Source: a virus (taxonomy: Duplodnaviria; Heunggongvirae; Uroviricota; Caudoviricetes). Taken from it: DNA of 40,471 nt. Where the stretch lies: positions 1 to 40,471 of the IMG/VR virus record IMGVR_UViG_2547132281_000014; one strand, written 5' to 3'. The position numbers and the translations under genes were made by a program. Below the pieces are notes generated by a model, which saw only the letters and a program-made list of their open reading frames with translations, ran no database searches and was not told the origin of the DNA. This document shows positions 1,369-23,641 of the stretch, piece after piece; within the stretch, counting starts at the first letter, position 1; each line of letters begins with the position of its first letter.

Positions 1369-1444
1369 GCCGATATAGCTCAGTTGGTAGAGCAGCGCAT
1401 TCGTAATGCGAAGGTCGTAGGTTCGACTCCTATTATCGGCACCA
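1369..1444 (+). tRNA. thrW: tRNA-Thr (anticodon CGU)
   Basis: 76-nt sequence GCCGATATAGCTCAGTTGGTAGAGCAGCGCATTCGTAATGCGAAGGTCGTAGGTTCGACTCCTATTATCGGCACCA with cloverleaf arms, anticodon loop TTCGTAA and encoded CCA; directly downstream of proA as in E. coli-type genomes. Confidence 0.9.
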
Positions 1445-7016: not shown

Positions 7017-7301
7017 TCAAAACATAAATTTGGCGAGACCTAAAATCGCCAAGCCTGTTGCAACAGTCCATGCGATCTGTTTATTTACGGCTGATGAAAT
7101 AGCGCTGTTGACTTCACTTAGGCTAGGTTTTTTTGACAACTTTTCATCTATATCTATTTGTTTTTGAAGGATAACAGCGACATCGCGTCGGGTGTCGGAG
7201 AGAGCGTTTCGCAAATCACGAATGTCAGCTCTCATCTCTGCGAGATTTGTTTTTATATCCTCAACATTCGCTTCTAACTTAGCGACTCGGGCTTCAAGCA
7301 T
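7017..7301 (-). CDS. coiled-coil protein with C-terminal transmembrane helix (XhlA-like architecture), 94 aa; alternative upstream start at 7424 gives 135 aa
   Basis: ATG at 7301 with GGAGGTG 7 nt upstream; heptad-like MLEARVAKLEANVEDIKTNLAEMRADIRDL followed by hydrophobic IAWTVATGLAILGLAKFMF; occupies the lambda rexB position. Confidence 0.5.
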   Translation of the reverse strand: MLEARVAKLEANVEDIKTNLAEMRADIRDLRNALSDTRRDVAVILQKQIDIDEKLSKKPSLSEVNSAISSAVNKQIAWTVATGLAILGLAKFMF

Positions 7302-7368
7302 GTCATCACCTCCGCCATCTCCACCGTGTCTTCTAATTGTGGGAAGTTCACTATTAAATGGTACTACA

Positions 7369-7716
7369 TTATTTTGCGGCGTCGGCATTTTTTTCATCTT
7401 CCGTTTTTGCTGGGAACTTTTCATTTACCCAGTTCAAAACTGAAAACGCATTTATATGAATTTCATTTCCACAATTGTTGCATATTAGTGAAAAGTAATA
7501 CTGGTTAGCAGTATCAGAATAAATGCTTTTTTCAGTAAAAACATTCACATAACTACCAAGTTTCATAGTACATGGCATGCCCACATTCGCGCTGACTTGA
7601 GGCACAGTCAATCTGTCGTGTCCACATAGTGTACATTTTAGATATATATTCTTTTCTGAGAAATAAGAGACCAACATATCCATGTTAATCTTTTCGAATC
7701 CCTGCTCACTAGCCAT
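7369..7716 (-). CDS. zinc-ribbon-like protein, 115 aa (CTLCGH ... CNNCGN), immediately downstream of cI
   Basis: ATG at 7716 with AAGGG Shine-Dalgarno, 15 nt after the cI stop; two CxxC pairs; AT-rich; occupies the lambda rexA position. Confidence 0.6.
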   Translation of the reverse strand: MASEQGFEKINMDMLVSYFSEKNIYLKCTLCGHDRLTVPQVSANVGMPCTMKLGSYVNVFTEKSIYSDTANQYYFSLICNNCGNEIHINAFSVLNWVNEKFPAKTEDEKNADAAK

Positions 7717-7731
7717 TATATGCCCTTAGAA

Positions 7732-8472
7732 CTATAACCGATTGTATTTTATTGACTCATGAATCAACGCCTTGCCCATTACATAAAGCTGATCCTGCGA
7801 TTTTTCATCGATGTACCATTTCTCATAGGCAGGGTTATCCGAAAGAACGGCTAGCTTGTCACCTTGCATTTGAAGACGTTTAACATGAAAAGTCTTACCG
7901 TAAACGAAAGAGTAAATTCCATCAGTCTGGAAGTGACGAACAGAAATGTCGACAAACAGTCGATCTCCGGAAACGAGAGTAGGGGACATACTATCGCCAT
8001 TTACAGTCATAACCTTAATATCATCCTGAGAACGGTTACCGAAAAGAGAACGGGCATGTTCTGTTGTGAACTCAATGGCGTAGAGCACATCAACATAGTC
8101 TGAAAGCATATAGGTTCCAGGTCCTGCGCTAACGCTAAGATCTAAAACTTCTATCCTGTATACGTCGGGTTTTGTTGGATTGGGGATGCTTGCCATTTCC
8201 TTACATCCTTCTCTCTCGCCAACACCATATTCTAAATATGAAGCCGATACCCCCAGAGCCAACGCAAGTTTATTCATGACAGAGGCACGAGGCTTCGCTG
8301 CGCCGATTGTGTATCGCCGCGCCATTTCATATGTAACGCCAACAAGACTTTTGAGTTGGGTGACAGAAATTCCCTTGTTTGTCATTAACTCGTTTAGTCT
8401 CTTGGCGAAATCTGGATACTTCTGTTCTTCTACCATAGGTAGAAGATTACTCACATCACATACGCTCGTCAT
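7732..8472 (-). CDS. CI-type prophage repressor (N-terminal HTH plus C-terminal S24 LexA-like peptidase domain)
   Basis: HTH region GISVTQLKSLVGVTYEMARRY and peptidase motif VNGDSMSPTL; divergent from the cro-like gene across operators; the track start at 8493 is a TTG, and the ATG at 8472 may give a leaderless start. Confidence 0.85.
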   Translation of the reverse strand: MTSVCDVSNLLPMVEEQKYPDFAKRLNELMTNKGISVTQLKSLVGVTYEMARRYTIGAAKPRASVMNKLALALGVSASYLEYGVGEREGCKEMASIPNPTKPDVYRIEVLDLSVSAGPGTYMLSDYVDVLYAIEFTTEHARSLFGNRSQDDIKVMTVNGDSMSPTLVSGDRLFVDISVRHFQTDGIYSFVYGKTFHVKRLQMQGDKLAVLSDNPAYEKWYIDEKSQDQLYVMGKALIHESIKYNRL

Positions 8473-8489
8473 TTCTATTTTAAGTAGTT

Positions 8490-8518
8490 GCAATTCGCTA
8501 CTTTAAGTAGCATTATCC
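8490..8518 (+). promoter_or_regulatory. putative PR promoter with embedded operator (OR)
   Basis: TTGCAA-N17-CATTAT with spacer containing CTACTTTAAGTAG; followed by AGGAG and the cro-like ATG at 8544; inverted AAGTAG/CTACTT half-sites across 8480-8510. Confidence 0.5.
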
Positions 8519-14355: not shown

Positions 14356-14721
14356 GTGATGCGTGATATTCAGATGGTTCTGGATCGTTGGGGAGCATGG
14401 GCGGCGAGTGATAGTTCAGGAGTAGATTATTCTCCTATAGCTGCTGGGTTTAAAGGGCTTCTTCCCTATACAAGCAAAACACGTCAGGCTTGTTCAGATA
14501 GTGATGCATTAATTATTGAAGGTTGTCTTGCTCGTCTAAAGCAAAAAAGGCCGGACGAACATTCGCTTCTTGTTGCCCATTACCTATACGGTATCTCTAA
14601 AAGAAAGCTCGCCAAGGCTAGTAAAAAGGATGAGAAACTAATACGCATTGAGATACAGATGGCTGAGGGATTTATCGATGGTTGCCTTAGTATGCTCGAT
14701 ATACGTTTAGAATGTGAATAG
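14356..14721 (+). CDS. late-gene antiterminator Q (QuuD-like family)
   Basis: N-terminal MRDIQMVLDRWGAWAA ... IAAGFKGL matches my memory of DLP12 QuuD; upstream of the lysis cassette. Confidence 0.75.
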   Translation: MMRDIQMVLDRWGAWAASDSSGVDYSPIAAGFKGLLPYTSKTRQACSDSDALIIEGCLARLKQKRPDEHSLLVAHYLYGISKRKLAKASKKDEKLIRIEIQMAEGFIDGCLSMLDIRLECE

Positions 14722-14726
14722 ATACA

Positions 14727-14758
14727 ACAACGGCTCTTAGAGAGCCGTTGTTTTTAGA
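14727..14758. terminator. intrinsic terminator, potentially bidirectional
   Basis: CAACGGCTC-TTAGA-GAGCCGTTG perfect 9-bp stem followed by TTTTT; 6 nt after the Q stop and at the 3' end of the convergent minus-strand unit. Confidence 0.6.
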
Positions 14759-14933
14759 AACTGTTTTTTATGACTGAACCTGTGGTGCAACTTAAAAAGT
14801 TACTGTAGCCATTGACGCCATTGTTGCTTGTTTTTTGAGCAGTGGATGGAATGCTTGCTGGCTTAGGCGCAGCTGTAGTTGTATGCCTGTTAGTATAGAC
14901 TACAAAGTTACCTGTAGATGATTTGTTATCCAT
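14754..14933 (-). CDS. possible small ORF (59 aa, Ser/Thr/Asn-rich) coupled to the serine peptidase gene
   Basis: ATG at 14933 overlaps the peptidase stop (ATGGATAA); MDNKSSTGNFVVYTNRHTTTAAPKPASIPSTAQKTSNNGVNGYSNFLSCTTGSVIKNSF; below the 60-aa track cut-off, low complexity, may not be translated. Confidence 0.25.
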   Translation of the reverse strand: MDNKSSTGNFVVYTNRHTTTAAPKPASIPSTAQKTSNNGVNGYSNFLSCTTGSVIKNSF

Positions 14934-15921
14934 GTCGAGCCCACCCCTCTGAGATAAGGTTATGATTTATGCCGAACTGACCTGGGACGCCTGGAACTTG
15001 CAAACGCTGTAACATCCCCTCAGTGCGGAATTGATATGAAAACGTGTCTGGAGCCTCTAAAATGCTTCTGACAGATACGTACGATGCCTGGTTAACTGTT
15101 CCTAAGATAGCATTTGGGTCAAAAGGTTCACCCAGATGCATCTCAGTTTTGAAATCTTCATAAATTTCTTTGATCAGACTGTAAAGGTGCTCATCTGGTT
15201 TTTCCACCGTAAGACCTAAATCGTTTACCGCTTCAATCCTATTTATAGTGTAGTCATGGCTACCAGAATCACTACAAAGGAAACTTACAATTTTCTCAAT
15301 GCTTTCACTATCAGTGAGTTGGTGAGACAGTAGTTTTCTTGCGAGCATTTGAATCTGCGCTTTAGCTCGATAGACTTTTCCAAGTACCAAGGGATGAACC
15401 TTTTCACTTAATGCAAGGAGGATCTGTGCAAGTGAGGCATCATCTTTGATATTCAAATCATGCTTAACTACTTCAAGATAGCCATTGATTTCTTCAACAC
15501 TGACTGGAAGTTGAAGTGGCTGCCCATTGATTATGGCCGAAGGGTTAAGTGGTGTATTCACACTTGGATCGATTGGCCCTAAGGTTGCCTGCTTGGTCAT
15601 AACCAAGTTGTTCGCGCCAAGGCACATTATCGTCCCAGAACTATGGCATTTTGATGGGATTATGATTTCGAGTTCTTTACAAAACTGACGAAGCAGGTTT
15701 ACAAGGCTCCATGCTGTTAAAGTGTCGCCGCCTCGCGTATAGAGCACGAGGCTAATTTTTTGAACATCACCTATCACATCAAGATGATTGACGAACAGAT
15801 CGAATACATCAGCGCTGATTTGAGCTTCTTGGTTTGGTCTATCACCTGTTACATAGCATAATACTTTTGAATTGCGTGCTTGTTCCAGTTGCGCATACAG
15901 GGCTTTACGCTGCTCAAACAT
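14926..15921 (-). CDS. ClpP/SppA-fold (SDH-type) serine peptidase, 331 aa, cargo gene in the Q-to-S interval
   Basis: LYTRGGDTLTAWSLVNLLRQF ... SKCHSSGTIMCLGANNLVM ... GPIDP aligns with the ClpP GG..TA / active-site Ser / LGA pattern; ATG at 15921 with AAGGA; AT-rich and opposite to the late operon. Confidence 0.65.
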   Translation of the reverse strand: MFEQRKALYAQLEQARNSKVLCYVTGDRPNQEAQISADVFDLFVNHLDVIGDVQKISLVLYTRGGDTLTAWSLVNLLRQFCKELEIIIPSKCHSSGTIMCLGANNLVMTKQATLGPIDPSVNTPLNPSAIINGQPLQLPVSVEEINGYLEVVKHDLNIKDDASLAQILLALSEKVHPLVLGKVYRAKAQIQMLARKLLSHQLTDSESIEKIVSFLCSDSGSHDYTINRIEAVNDLGLTVEKPDEHLYSLIKEIYEDFKTEMHLGEPFDPNAILGTVNQASYVSVRSILEAPDTFSYQFRTEGMLQRLQVPGVPGQFGINHNLISEGWARHG

Positions 15922-16375
15922 TCAGATGTCCTTATGTTAAGAATTTTCAAACCAAGAGGTAACATTCATTCAGAACTTACCACACAAGTGGTTAGATTCT
16001 ATCGGCAAAAAAAGTCCAAAAATTAGCGCATTTACAAAACTCAAAGAGAGCAATGAGATTTTGCAAACGTACAGTGTGGATAACTTATGTGCAAAGTGGC
16101 GTTGATTTTACTCATTCGCTTCAAAAAAACCATAGTTTTCCTCACGCGGTCCGCATTTTATCGTGTAATCTGTTAAGAGTGGTTACTTCGCCACACAGCT
16201 TAAACCTGCCGTCGAGCGGGTTTTGTCATTTCTGGGCCTTGGTATTCGTTGGGCTTGGTCTATCTAGCACTTATCCATTGGCTCGGCTTCTTTTACGTTT
16301 CCGCTTCTGGTTTGCGGTTCGTGGTACTCCCTCAATTTGCACCTCCTGTATCGGCGAGGTGAGAGATAACTACAA

Positions 16376-16702
16376 ATGCCTCATAACCCAAATACCTGGC
16401 TGGAGTTGGTCCAGAGCTGGTGGCGTGGAGACACACCGCTGGGCGCAGTGATTATGTCGATCGTTATGGCTGGCTTGCGCATTGCCTATTTTGGCGGTGG
16501 TGGTGGCTGGAAACGAAAAACGCTCGAGATTTTGCTCTGTGGTGCTCTGACGCTGACTTTTGCATCCGCTCTTGAGTATGTCGGATGGCCTAAATCTCTT
16601 TCTGTTGCCATTGGTGGCGGCGTTGGGCTGATCGGGGTCGATGCTATTCGTGGGGCTGCAATGAGAGTAATCGGTAATAAGTTTGGTGGCTCTAAGGAGT
16701 AA
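16376..16702 (+). CDS. holin (lambda S-like, three predicted TM segments)
   Basis: 108 aa with hydrophobic segments LGAVIMSIVMAGLRIAYF, LEILLCGALTLTFASALEYV, LSVAIGGGVGLIGVDAI; immediately upstream of the endolysin. Confidence 0.7.
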   Translation: MPHNPNTWLELVQSWWRGDTPLGAVIMSIVMAGLRIAYFGGGGGWKRKTLEILLCGALTLTFASALEYVGWPKSLSVAIGGGVGLIGVDAIRGAAMRVIGNKFGGSKE

Positions 16703-17721: not shown

Positions 17722-18348
17722 TCAGTTGTCAAATGAATATACGTTAAAGGTATATGTCGACATAATTTCACCAAGTACCTCAATACATACACTTTTTTTA
17801 TGAAAATTACTGGGAAATGAACTTAGCTCCTCAAGACATTGCACATAAGTGCTGATATCACTTGCATCACGTTCAAGGAATTTCACTTGACCAAAAGAAG
17901 GAGTTTTAATCTTGGTTCTTTGCTGGATTATATGGATAAAGTGTGTAGTTGGTGAAACTATTACTCTTGAAATATCGGAAATGATGTCTTCTTGAACTTG
18001 CCGATAAAGTAAATCCTTTGGGTAATGGTGTTTAATCTCGATGGTTGCAACATTGCCATTATGTTCAGACGTTAATATCGACTGGTTATAAAGTGATATG
18101 TCAACAGCGCCGATACCGAGTTTTGGATGCTCACTTAAAGCAGTTAGTGTGCTGATTTGATTGAGTATAACAACTAACTCATCACGTATTTGTGTTTCAT
18201 GTTTGCGATTGTAGAAGTAGCCATTCAGTTCATTTAACTTTTTATGCATCCTATCGTGACTAATTGCTTCGATCAGTAAATCCTGAATCATACTTTTCTC
18301 TAGATAATCCGAACGGTTGTAAGTGACAGTATTGTGCTGGCATGTCAT
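17722..18348 (-). CDS. hypothetical protein, 208 aa (AT-rich cargo, second gene of a minus-strand pair)
   Basis: Long ORF with ATG start, low GC, opposite to the late operon; no motif I recognise. Confidence 0.55.
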   Translation of the reverse strand: MTCQHNTVTYNRSDYLEKSMIQDLLIEAISHDRMHKKLNELNGYFYNRKHETQIRDELVVILNQISTLTALSEHPKLGIGAVDISLYNQSILTSEHNGNVATIEIKHHYPKDLLYRQVQEDIISDISRVIVSPTTHFIHIIQQRTKIKTPSFGQVKFLERDASDISTYVQCLEELSSFPSNFHKKSVCIEVLGEIMSTYTFNVYSFDN

Positions 18349-18391: not shown

Positions 18392-18727
18392 TCATCGATA
18401 GAAAAACTTTACAGCCCACTCGTAAACAGCTTTGTAAATCGGTTCATGGTAAATACTATCGATACTATTCAGATGTGCGATCATCGCCTCCACAGTTGTA
18501 GTGGTTGTTTCTAATATTTCGATTATTGCAGGGCGGTCATCATCTTCATCGAAGTATTCGAACAGCAGTACAGGTTTACCATGCAATTCAGCATCTGAGA
18601 CTCTAAGGTTACAACTACCGCTCAACTCAAAGTGAATTTTGTAATTACCTTCTACAGAATGGCCTACGGGGAAAAAGTATAGGGTGTCATCTTTGTTCAA
18701 AAGCCATTCCCATTCATAACTATTCAT
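18392..18727 (-). CDS. hypothetical acidic protein, 111 aa (first gene of the minus-strand pair)
   Basis: ATG at 18727 with AGGAG 7 nt upstream (the track ORF extends to 18745); acidic EYFDEDDD stretch; no motif I recognise. Confidence 0.55.
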   Translation of the reverse strand: MNSYEWEWLLNKDDTLYFFPVGHSVEGNYKIHFELSGSCNLRVSDAELHGKPVLLFEYFDEDDDRPAIIEILETTTTTVEAMIAHLNSIDSIYHEPIYKAVYEWAVKFFYR

Positions 18728-18877
18728 TTGTGAACTCCTGTTCATTGAGTTTCAACAACTATCAACTACATCCAGCGAAGCATAAAAGATCGTTTATGGC
18801 AAAACCGGAATGGAGTGCGATTCGATTCTGAGAAGGGTGCCACGTATCGTACGCGAACCATCCAAGAGGATTATGCA

Positions 18878-21772: not shown

Positions 21773-23013
21773 TGTTCTTTTCGGGATTATTTCAACGAAA
21801 AAGTGACGCACCGGTGACCACGCCAGCAGAGCTGGCGGATGCTATCGGGCTGTCATATGACACCTATACCGGAAAGCAGATCAGCAGCCAGCGGGCCATG
21901 CGACTGACGGCGGTTTTTTCCTGCGTCAGGGTGCTGGCGGAGTCGGTCGGGATGTTGCCCTGCAACCTGTATCACCTGAACGGCAGCCTGAAACAGAGAG
22001 CCACCGGCGAACGTCTGCATAAGCTGATCTCCACGCATCCCAATGGCTATATGACGCCGCAGGAGTTCTGGGAGCTGGTGGTCACCTGTCTGTGCCTGCG
22101 GGGAAACTTTTACGCCTACAAAGTGAAAGCATTTGGCGAAGTGGCTGAACTGCTGCCCGTCGACCCAGGTTGTGTGGTACCGAAGCTTAACAGTAGCTGG
22201 GAACCGGTTTACCAGGTCACATTCCCGGACGGCTCCACGGATGTACTGAGCCAGGAAGATATCTGGCATGTGCGCACGCTGACGCTGGACGGTCTGGTGG
22301 GACTGAATCCCATCGCCTATGCCCGCGAGGCAATATCGCTGGCAGCTGCGACCGAAGAGCACGGGGCCAGACTGTTCAGCAATGGTGCGGTGACGTCCGG
22401 TGTGTTGCGTACAGAGCAGACGCTGTCGGATCAGGCTTATGAGCGTCTGAAGAAAGATTTTGAGGAGCGTCACACCGGGCTTGGTAATGCTCACCGCCCG
22501 ATGATCCTTGAGATGGGGCTGGACTGGAAGTCGATGGCGCTGAACGCCGAGGACAGCCAGTTCCTGGAAACCCGCAAGTTTCAGCTTGAAGAAATCTGTC
22601 GTCTGTTCCGTGTTCCATTGCACATGGTGCAGAACACCGATCGCGCCACCTTCAACAATATCGAAGAACTGGGGCTGGGATTTATCAACTATTCACTGGT
22701 GCCGTATCTGACCCGCATTGAGCAGCGGATCAACACCGGACTGGTACGAAAAAGTAAGCAGGGCGTTTATTACGCCAAATTTAACGCCGGGGCGTTACTG
22801 CGCGGGGATATGAAGTCCCGTTTTGAAGCCTACGCCACCGGGATTAACTGGGGAATTTACTCTCCCAATGACTGCCGCGACCTGGAAGATATGAATCCGC
22901 GTCCCGGTGGGGATGTCTATCTCACACCGATGAACATGACCACGAAACCCTCCGATGGCAGTAAAGCCGGTAAGCAGAAGGATAACGCCAATGCAGACGA
23001 AACAACGTCTTGA
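21772..23013 (+). CDS. portal protein (HK97 family)
   Basis: 413 aa, follows the terminase, composition and size typical of HK97-type portals. Confidence 0.85.
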   Translation: MFFSGLFQRKSDAPVTTPAELADAIGLSYDTYTGKQISSQRAMRLTAVFSCVRVLAESVGMLPCNLYHLNGSLKQRATGERLHKLISTHPNGYMTPQEFWELVVTCLCLRGNFYAYKVKAFGEVAELLPVDPGCVVPKLNSSWEPVYQVTFPDGSTDVLSQEDIWHVRTLTLDGLVGLNPIAYAREAISLAAATEEHGARLFSNGAVTSGVLRTEQTLSDQAYERLKKDFEERHTGLGNAHRPMILEMGLDWKSMALNAEDSQFLETRKFQLEEICRLFRVPLHMVQNTDRATFNNIEELGLGFINYSLVPYLTRIEQRINTGLVRKSKQGVYYAKFNAGALLRGDMKSRFEAYATGINWGIYSPNDCRDLEDMNPRPGGDVYLTPMNMTTKPSDGSKAGKQKDNANADETTS

Positions 23014-23641
23014 TGTACCGCTGAGTCTGAAATCTGTCAGTGACTCCGGTGAGTTTGAAGGGTATGGCTCCGTCTTTGGTGTAAAGGACAGCCACGATGA
23101 TGTGGTGATGTCCGGGGCATTTGCTGCTTCCCTGCGGGCGTGGAGTGACAGAAAAGCGTTACCTGCGCTGCTCTGGCAGCACCGCATGGATGAACCCATC
23201 GGTGTTTACACCGAAATGAAGGAAGACGATGTCGGGCTTTACGTCAGGGGACGGTTGCTTATTGATGATGATCCCCTCGCAAAACGCGCACATGCACACA
23301 TGAAGGCCGGTTCGTTAACCGGCCTTTCTATTGGGTACGTCCTGAAAGACTGGGAATACGACCGGAGCAAAGAAGCCTTTCTGTTGAAAGAAATCGACCT
23401 CTGGGAAGTCAGTCTGGTGACGTTTCCGTCTAACGACGAGGCGCGGATCAGCGACGTCAAGAACGCGCTGGCCCGCGGGGAAATCCCCGAACAGAAAAAA
23501 ATCGAAAGAGTCCTGCGTGATGTCGGACTCTCCCGTACCCAGGCCAAAGCATTCATGGCCGGGGGCTATGGCGCACTGTCCCTGCGCGACGCTGAGGATG
23601 TGAGCTCTGCACTGAATGCACTGAAAAATCTGAACTTCTAA
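22991..23641 (+). CDS. prohead maturation protease (HK97 family)
   Basis: ATG at 22991 with AAGGA; overlaps the portal 3' end; between portal and major capsid gene. Confidence 0.75.
   Translation: MQTKQRLDVPLSLKSVSDSGEFEGYGSVFGVKDSHDDVVMSGAFAASLRAWSDRKALPALLWQHRMDEPIGVYTEMKEDDVGLYVRGRLLIDDDPLAKRAHAHMKAGSLTGLSIGYVLKDWEYDRSKEAFLLKEIDLWEVSLVTFPSNDEARISDVKNALARGEIPEQKKIERVLRDVGLSRTQAKAFMAGGYGALSLRDAEDVSSALNALKNLNF

Follow-up and report, generated by a model that had tools for sequence, protein, structure and literature searches.

The viral record IMGVR_UViG_2547132281_000014 (Caudoviricetes), whose 40,471 nucleotides (nt) are referred to here as the window, is a complete lambdoid, HK97-like prophage. 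Next to its antiterminator gene Q, the minus strand carries a gene encoding an SDH-type ClpP-fold serine protease, followed by an overlapping gene encoding a partner protein of only 59 amino acids (aa). Judging from the sequence comparisons presented below, these two genes constitute a widespread, mobile two-gene module which has not previously been described, and the small protein recurs in some relatives as a peptide module grafted onto antitoxins of several unrelated families. The features of the module in the window are as follows:

14926 to 15921, minus strand: SDH-type ClpP-fold serine protease, 331 aa (from the list of open reading frames, ORFs)
14754 to 14933, minus strand: partner gene, 59 aa, not annotated (MDNKSSTGNFVVYTNRH...GSVIKNSF; from the ORF list)
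14941 to 14949, minus strand: codons of the conserved residues E325-G326-W327 (GAGGGGTGG), Shine-Dalgarno-like, 7 nt upstream of the partner ATG (14931 to 14933)
15929 to 15933, minus strand: Shine-Dalgarno sequence of the protease gene (AAGGA), 7 nt before the protease ATG
15640 to 15642, 15568 to 15570 and 15256 to 15258, minus strand: codons of the candidate triad residues S94, D118 and H222, respectively (from conservation)

The partner gene

The protease ORF lies between Q and a lambda-family holin gene, exactly as claimed in the original prediction, which saw in it a plausible single-gene effector. That part of the prediction has to be abandoned, since a conserved and translationally coupled gene follows. 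The partner ORF and the protease gene overlap by 8 nt, a stretch which includes the protease stop codon. The homologous loci were retrieved with family-specific motifs in a scan of one genome per species (185,579 species genomes), and the statistics on them apply to the subfamily of proteases at least 43% identical to the query. In the 77 loci analyzed, an ORF of at least 50 aa starting from -45 to +30 nt of the protease stop codon was present in 93.5% of the cases, versus 2.6% in the reverse-strand control, while shuffled sequences gave a mean length of about 14 aa. When 75 IMG/VR loci were added, an equivalent small ORF was found in 123 of the 124 non-redundant loci, which belong to many phyla. 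A small ORF in this position, and on the strand of the protease gene, was likewise seen when homologues were sampled, among them those of Pectobacterium, Raoultella, and Nitrosomonas.

The partner proteins are very divergent, and they have a common architecture: an N-terminal motif, (V/I)xYx(D/N)Y..[ST][ST][SA], a short linker, and a second motif, [ST][ST]Ax.(D/E)(S/N)LxxI(I/M)(K/R)N, which is followed by a hydrophobic stretch. The protein of the window is rich in Ser, Thr, and Asn, with conserved N- and C-terminal motifs, and is proposed to be largely disordered. With a hidden Markov model (HMM) built without the window copy, the window partner ranks first among the 742 stop-to-stop fragments of the window (E 0.006). 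In close relatives, 17-21 nucleotide differences per 180 nt leave the ORF intact, with 10-14 synonymous versus 4-5 non-synonymous codon changes; the amino acid changes are located in the middle linker, apart from one near-C-terminal substitution in each of two relatives. This excess of synonymous changes appears to be a signature of purifying selection.

The start of the partner gene is tied to the end of the protease gene. The partner ATG is located 4-11 nt past the codon of an invariant Trp residue of the protease in 90 of 112 loci (7 nt in the window). The E-G-W codons read GAAGGATGG, GAAGGGTGG or GAGGGGTGG, conforming to the Shine-Dalgarno-like pattern GA(A/G)GGNTGG. Since the ribosome-binding site of the partner is thus formed by conserved codons of the protease, the translation of the partner is coupled to that of the protease.

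RefSeq does not annotate the small gene, and the partner ORF matched no NCBIfam or Pfam model. Searching a protein database with the alignment of the small proteins yielded 21 relatives, all unnamed, the family being too divergent for a word-seeded search. The clustering of the flanking ORFs detected no third conserved neighbor, and no conserved transporter, modification enzyme or ATPase.

The protease

The protease matches the Pfam family SDH_protease (PF01972) with 54.2 bits, above the gathering score of 31.3, over residues 53-124 only. Since its score against the NCBIfam equivalog NF047768 amounts to only 69.8 bits, below the cutoff of 250, it appears to be a member of the SDH superfamily belonging to a distinct subfamily and not to the equivalog. 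In RefSeq the gene is named "SDH family Clp fold serine proteinase", and residues 1-286 are included in phrog_11747 of PHROGs, where the annotated function is unknown. The AlphaFold model obtained with 40 homologs shows a ClpP-like fold (mean predicted local distance difference test score, pLDDT, 86.7; predicted template modeling score 0.83). When it was compared with viral models using Foldseek, giant-virus "serine dehydrogenase proteinases" were matched over 240-290 columns (E 1e-12). In view of this full-length match, the modeled ClpP-like core plus an extra C-terminal helical domain represents the two-domain architecture of the SDH family. The C-terminal half, which had been left unassigned in the original prediction, therefore belongs to the SDH family, and it carries a candidate catalytic His, H222.

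The Pfam match above threshold and the ClpP-like model bear out the proposal of a ClpP/SDH-fold serine protease, and the Ser of the HSSGT motif (S94) is the likely nucleophile. A PDB search with the single protease sequence gave nothing meaningful; 1510-N is the best PDB sequence match, and the profile alignment to it places S94 exactly on the residue substituted in the S97A mutant chain. When aligned by hhalign with a ClpP (S14) sequence, YTRGG pairs with NSPGG, and S94 with the ClpP nucleophile. The only invariant residues in the 48-member alignment, which extends down to 30% identity, are G64, G65, S94, T97, D118, H222, A231, and W327. G64 and G65 are the predicted oxyanion-hole residues. 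Since S94, D118, and H222 are kept throughout this alignment, whereas K110 and H176 vary, Ser94-Asp118-His222 is the candidate catalytic set. H222 sits in an invariant SGSHDYT motif of the C-terminal half. This order of residues, Ser, Asp, His, is what we take the family name SDH to mean.

The Ser/Lys or Ser/His dyad predicted originally does not fit these data. The Ser/Lys dyad involving K110 was rejected, given that position 110 is Lys in the clade of the window and S, R, G or N in distant relatives, and H176 was rejected as the catalytic His since it is not conserved in the 48-member alignment. Position 110 presumably corresponds to the triad His of ClpP, which lies on the VMIHQP strand (VMTKQ versus VMIHQ, in an alignment of our own).

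The C-terminal three-stranded sheet of the protease ends in EGW, of which G326 and W327 are invariant and E325 nearly so. Distant members of 390-500 aa (P0191, P0223, P0264, and P0291, for example) carry long Gln/Ala-rich insertions in this beta-sheet region, and they keep the terminal GW and the S/D/H residues. These long homologs were considered as natural fusions of the protease with the peptide, and this possibility was rejected because the extra length consists of insertions in the C-terminal sheet.

No membrane segment was predicted in the protease by inspection, and the enzyme is proposed to reside in the cytoplasm. No function has been described for SDH-type family members in the open-access literature, outside which papers may exist.

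Partner proteins fused to antitoxins

In about 12-16 of the 124 loci, the partner is longer: the usual peptide module makes up its first ~55 residues and is continued by an antitoxin-like C-terminal extension. A toxin gene follows on the same strand, 0-20 nt after the extended partner. The cases identified are as follows:

L066, L073, L075: extension with a SocA/Panacea domain (PF13274, E 2e-18; L066 only tested), then a conserved gene of 105-110 aa without Pfam match
L058, L089: antitoxin-like tail, then YafQ (E 6e-26 and 2e-21)
L067: antitoxin-like tail, then PIN (E 7e-12)
L082: antitoxin-like tail, then Fic/Doc (E 2e-19)
L091, L132: antitoxin-like tail, then MazF/PemK (E 5e-26; L091 tested)
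L040, L081: antitoxin-like tail, then a conserved 183-aa protein without Pfam match (9260 to 9808 in L040)

The 183-aa and 105-110-aa proteins occupy the place of YafQ, PIN, Doc or MazF, and are candidates for new toxin families. In L041 and L051, the partners looked HicB-like and the downstream genes HicA-like; Pfam gave no confirmation, and these loci were not used as evidence.

One and the same peptide module has thus been joined to antitoxins from no fewer than five unrelated families, and in every case this protease precedes it. Because of this recurrent association, the simplest reading is that a protein engages the protease by means of the peptide module, which might be an inhibitor, a decoy substrate or a degron. 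The minimal two-gene form lacking a toxin gene accounts for about 90% of the loci, including the window, whose own copy has no antitoxin fusion.

Distribution and mobility of the module

The module protease was identified in 354 of the 185,579 species genomes and on 77 IMG/VR contigs. The best 80 loci all encode proteins at least 50% identical to that of the window and come from Proteobacteria, Bacillota, Bacteroidota, Spirochaetota, Chloroflexota, Patescibacteria, Planctomycetota, Verrucomicrobiota, and one archaeon. The archaeal copy, on a contig of a metagenome-assembled genome of Candidatus Methanofastidiosum (L083, 121 to 1104), is a 52%-identical protease accompanied by a typical small partner ORF, and provided that the binning is correct, it suggests a transfer between domains. 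The arrangement Q-protease-holin was found, with at least 99% identity, in 46 of 5,426 complete Escherichia coli genomes, and no deposited phage genome was found to carry the protease gene at the DNA level. Since identities of at least 50% extend across many phyla, yet the gene is present in only 354 of 185,579 species genomes, the module is horizontally mobile accessory cargo.

The location of the module varies. It lies beside Q and the lysis genes in E. coli-type phages, directly after a cI-like repressor and on the same strand in Pectobacterium, at the edge of a prophage by the tail fibers in Raoultella and Klebsiella, and inside a Mu-like remnant in Nitrosomonas. According to the Pfam matches of the four nearest genes, its neighbors on 39 viral loci are DUF968, lysozymes, holins, integrases, S24 repressors, portals, and terminases; on 39 genome loci, they are integrases, transposases, and, repeatedly, parts of restriction-modification systems (type I S subunit, Vsr, EcoRII, DpnII, and DUF559). 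These genome neighbors, whose enrichment was judged by eye, resemble a mobile-element and defense-island context.

The cargo site after Q

The surroundings of the module in the window include the following features:

14356 to 14721, plus strand: antiterminator Q (PF06530, E 6e-53; phrog_79), left edge of the cargo site
neighboring the module: DUF968/HNH-like gene, on the upstream side with Q
14726 to 14752: perfect 12-bp hairpin between the stop of Q (14721) and that of the partner gene (14754), with a T-run on the plus strand
15922 to 16140, minus strand: non-coding region upstream of the module, the last stretch not common to other lambdoid phages
16202 to 16223, plus strand: terminator-like hairpin, candidate tR', upstream of the holin gene, in the block common to other phages and outside the module
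16376 to 16702: lambda-family holin (PF05106), followed by endolysin and Rz/Rz1 genes

The GC content is about 0.41 over 14400-16200, versus about 0.55 on both sides, and the module is absent from most of the related phages. Other reverse-oriented cassettes occur at this site after the same type of Q: a DUF6731 protein plus a 147-aa protein in the cdtI phage (L092, 1945 to 3333), a single 148-aa protein in PhiR40_1 (L093, 2009 to 2455), and alternative cassettes in the E. coli hits H56 and H60. The site just after this type of Q is therefore a variable cargo hotspot, in agreement with the original prediction of a reverse-oriented accessory cargo beside Q.

The hairpin at 14726-14752 is likely to be a bidirectional terminator, which would end the early transcript behind Q on one strand and the unit of two genes on the minus strand. 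Because it lies past the stop of the partner gene and not past that of the protease gene, the transcription unit appears to end after the small gene. The homology with the cdtI, SfIV, and SfII phages resumes only at ~16141-16164 and includes the hairpin at 16202-16223; the cargo therefore probably lies outside the late transcript, after Q but before the late-leader region, where the bidirectional terminator would insulate it. The stx genes, which require Q, are part of the late transcript and come after pR' and tR'. The comparison with the stx position made in the original prediction is thus a loose one: the window cargo comes immediately after Q, before the common late-leader block. Promoter scans of the interval did not locate pR', and no Rfam RNA family was found between Q and the holin gene.

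Possible functions of the module

The interpretation we favor, to which we give an even chance, is that the protease and its partner form a toxin-antitoxin (TA)-like or abortive-infection module, in which the partner is the cognate inhibitor or decoy. With the conserved motifs at its two ends, the small protein would attach to the protease and either inhibit it or serve as a decoy substrate (or degron) that is only slowly consumed, and in a lysogen expressing the module, the protease would be kept occupied by this labile partner. If the supply of partner stopped, upon a phage-induced shut-off or the loss of the element, the protease would be freed and would degrade cellular or phage proteins, leading to abortive infection or addiction. 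In the fusion lineages (about 10%), the peptide module would replace the DNA-binding domain of the antitoxin, and a second toxin (YafQ, VapC-PIN, Doc, MazF or a Panacea-neutralized toxin) would come under the control of the same protease. A role of the protease in defense or in the lysogen is plausible.

Several observations weigh against this interpretation. A regulatory protease that is not toxic and degrades tagged antitoxins would account for the antitoxin fusions just as well. No match to the protease was found in PADLOC-DB v2 at E values up to 0.1, and neither the partner gene nor any coupling of a ClpP-fold protease to TA systems was described in the open-access literature. The locus statistics, which hold only for the subfamily, are based on mechanical ORF calls. 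The window partner is a divergent member of its family, matching the HMM weakly and in the N-terminal motif only (E 0.006). Residues 219-221, directly before H222, are the only segment of the protease model with a pLDDT below 50. Lastly, the promoter scan revealed no sigma-70 consensus for the module on the minus strand of 15922-16140.

The low-confidence loop next to H222 (residues 219-222, window 15256-15267) may be a mobile loop which gates or completes the active site, and this would be compatible with a regulated activation, as expected if the enzyme were a dedicated regulatory or sensor protease, not toxic itself, cleaving the proteins which bear the peptide module as a portable degron. 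This is the main rival of the favored interpretation, and we consider it unlikely on the whole. Activated by a phage cue, such a protease would destroy the antitoxin and release the RNase, Doc or other toxin, while in the two-gene form, the free peptide would be a decoy or regulator, and phage proteins the real targets of a direct antiviral proteolysis. In antitoxins of five or more unrelated families, each followed by a toxin gene of its own, the peptide module stands in for the N-terminal domain, and this speaks in favor of the explanation, as does, by analogy, the fact that the Panacea protein SocA of the SocAB system is a ClpXP adaptor (PMC8832971). However, no sensor domain is evident, and since about 90% of the loci, including the window, carry no toxin gene, the commonest form would be devoid of an effector: the regulatory protease leaves the effector of the minimal two-gene form unexplained.

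The coupling of a small, fast-evolving peptide gene to a protease is also what might be expected of a protease-precursor pair in which a bioactive peptide (a signal, or a bacteriocin-like or ribosomally synthesized and post-translationally modified peptide-like product) matures from the small protein. NfeD/1510-N proteases cleave an operon-encoded partner (the stomatin/NfeD pair), and 1510-N is the very protein that best matches the protease in the PDB. This explanation is nevertheless improbable: neither protein shows a signal peptide or hydrophobic leader by inspection, no transporter or modification enzyme is conserved nearby, the fusions involve intracellular antitoxin segments, and both ends of the small protein are conserved while its middle is variable, unlike a leader-core layout. 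It is very improbable that the protease acts as a single-gene effector, in defense or lysogenic conversion, with the small ORF being irrelevant. RefSeq and PHROGs do annotate the protease only, but the presence of the small ORF in 123 of 124 loci, its fixed start relative to the Trp codon, the purifying selection it appears to undergo, and the terminator placed after it are all at odds with this idea. A housekeeping function in the phage, in the processing of prohead or scaffold proteins or the timing of lysis, has the lowest probability of all and would be a real surprise. The gene adjoins the lysis cassette, and the protease shows a weak similarity to ClpP-related head maturation proteases (PHROG E 0.003-0.009; NCBIfam 28 bits versus a cutoff of 120). 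These matches are marginal, and the prophage has its own HK97-type prohead protease, Peptidase_S78; moreover, the module is reverse-oriented, low in GC, and absent from most related phages, and it is common outside phages, beside restriction-modification genes and in an archaeon.

Comparison with known systems

Like the SDH proteinases (PF01972; NF047768), the window protease has a ClpP-fold core, a helical C-terminal domain, and the order Ser, Asp, His; what sets its subfamily apart is the invariant SGSHDYT motif, the EGW at the end of the three-stranded sheet, and the small partner gene, which is obligatory. The NfeD/STOPP protease 1510-N (PH1510) and SppA (S49) are ATP-independent ClpP-fold proteases with a Ser-Lys dyad, and are membrane-associated. 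The position of K138 in 1510-N, known from the K138A mutant chain, corresponds to a loop which varies within the window family and contains no conserved Lys.

The module resembles type II TA systems, where toxin-then-antitoxin order occurs, in its compactness: two co-oriented, overlapping genes on mobile elements. Here, however, the putative toxin is a 331-aa protease in place of a small RNase or kinase, and a DNA-binding domain is absent from the partner. The link with the Panacea (PanA) and other type II antitoxins lies in the relatives, whose partners are fused to Panacea or to tails preceding YafQ, PIN, Doc, and MazF; the Panacea survey makes no mention of a ClpP-like toxin. In three-component Xre/COG2856 systems (ImmA/IrrE-type metalloprotease), a dedicated protease controls the antitoxin or the repressor. 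In IetAS, which combines a subtilisin-like protease and an AAA ATPase, the protease IetS is the toxin (PMC13069673). These systems and SocAB-ClpXP have in common with the present module a protease acting as the toxin or controlling an antitoxin or repressor, but their folds and partners are unrelated, and none of them includes a ClpP-fold SDH protease or a portable tag of ~55 aa. As regards its location, the module is comparable to the moron and defense hotspots of lambdoid phages (rexAB beside cI; stx), which are likewise reverse or independent units of foreign GC content at a variable site.

Other features of the prophage

1369 to 1441, plus strand: tRNA gene (Rfam, 71.8 bits), adjoining the integrase gene
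1459 to 2622: integrase
7732 to 8493: S24/HTH cI-like repressor
22955 to 23641: prohead protease Peptidase_S78 (HK97-type), between portal and capsid

The tRNA gene is the likely attachment site of the prophage, and an aldehyde-dehydrogenase-like host gene is located on its left. A second pair of reverse-strand ORFs with a GC content of about 0.36, encoding proteins of 208 aa (17722 to 18348, minus strand; phrog_12494) and 117 aa (18392 to 18745, minus strand; phrog_14397), is present between Rz/Rz1 and the HNH/terminase genes. They are hypothetical proteins in RefSeq, without any Pfam, NCBIfam or PADLOC match, and the pair probably marks a further cargo site of the prophage. A 135-aa ORF (7017 to 7424, minus strand) without Pfam match is located on the same strand as the cI-like repressor gene, just downstream of it. 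Lambdoid phages often keep lysogen-expressed exclusion genes at this place, and the corresponding place in Pectobacterium (L002) is taken by the SDH module itself.

Biological significance

The protease gene and its family name were already present in RefSeq, Pfam, and PHROGs; what appears to be new is the partner gene and the coupling to TA systems. A conserved micro-protein missed by genome annotation is brought to light. An uncharacterized subfamily of SDH proteases comprising about 700 clusters at 50% identity receives a first functional context, and the lambdoid prophages of E. coli a candidate defense or addiction cargo in their variable hotspot behind Q.

The removal of type II antitoxins, which sets their toxins free, has long been debated, and it is usually ascribed to the host Lon or Clp proteases. 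The modules described here appear to bring their own protease together with a recognizable and transferable peptide element, so that the turnover of antitoxins becomes directly testable. We suggest, tentatively and with more doubt than conviction, that they represent a new class of TA or abortive-infection systems, in which a ClpP-fold protease of the system's own is combined with a portable tag of ~55 aa which tethers or feeds its bearer to the protease. If so, the tag alone would make up a self-timing protease toxin, and when carried by the YafQ, VapC, Doc, MazF or Panacea antitoxins, it would replace the host Lon/Clp proteases as the switch for toxin release. This would be the first case of antitoxin turnover being encoded within the module itself, as a transferable degron-protease pair, and should the peptide act specifically, as a degron or as an inhibitor, the two proteins might be useful as an orthogonal protein-degradation tool.

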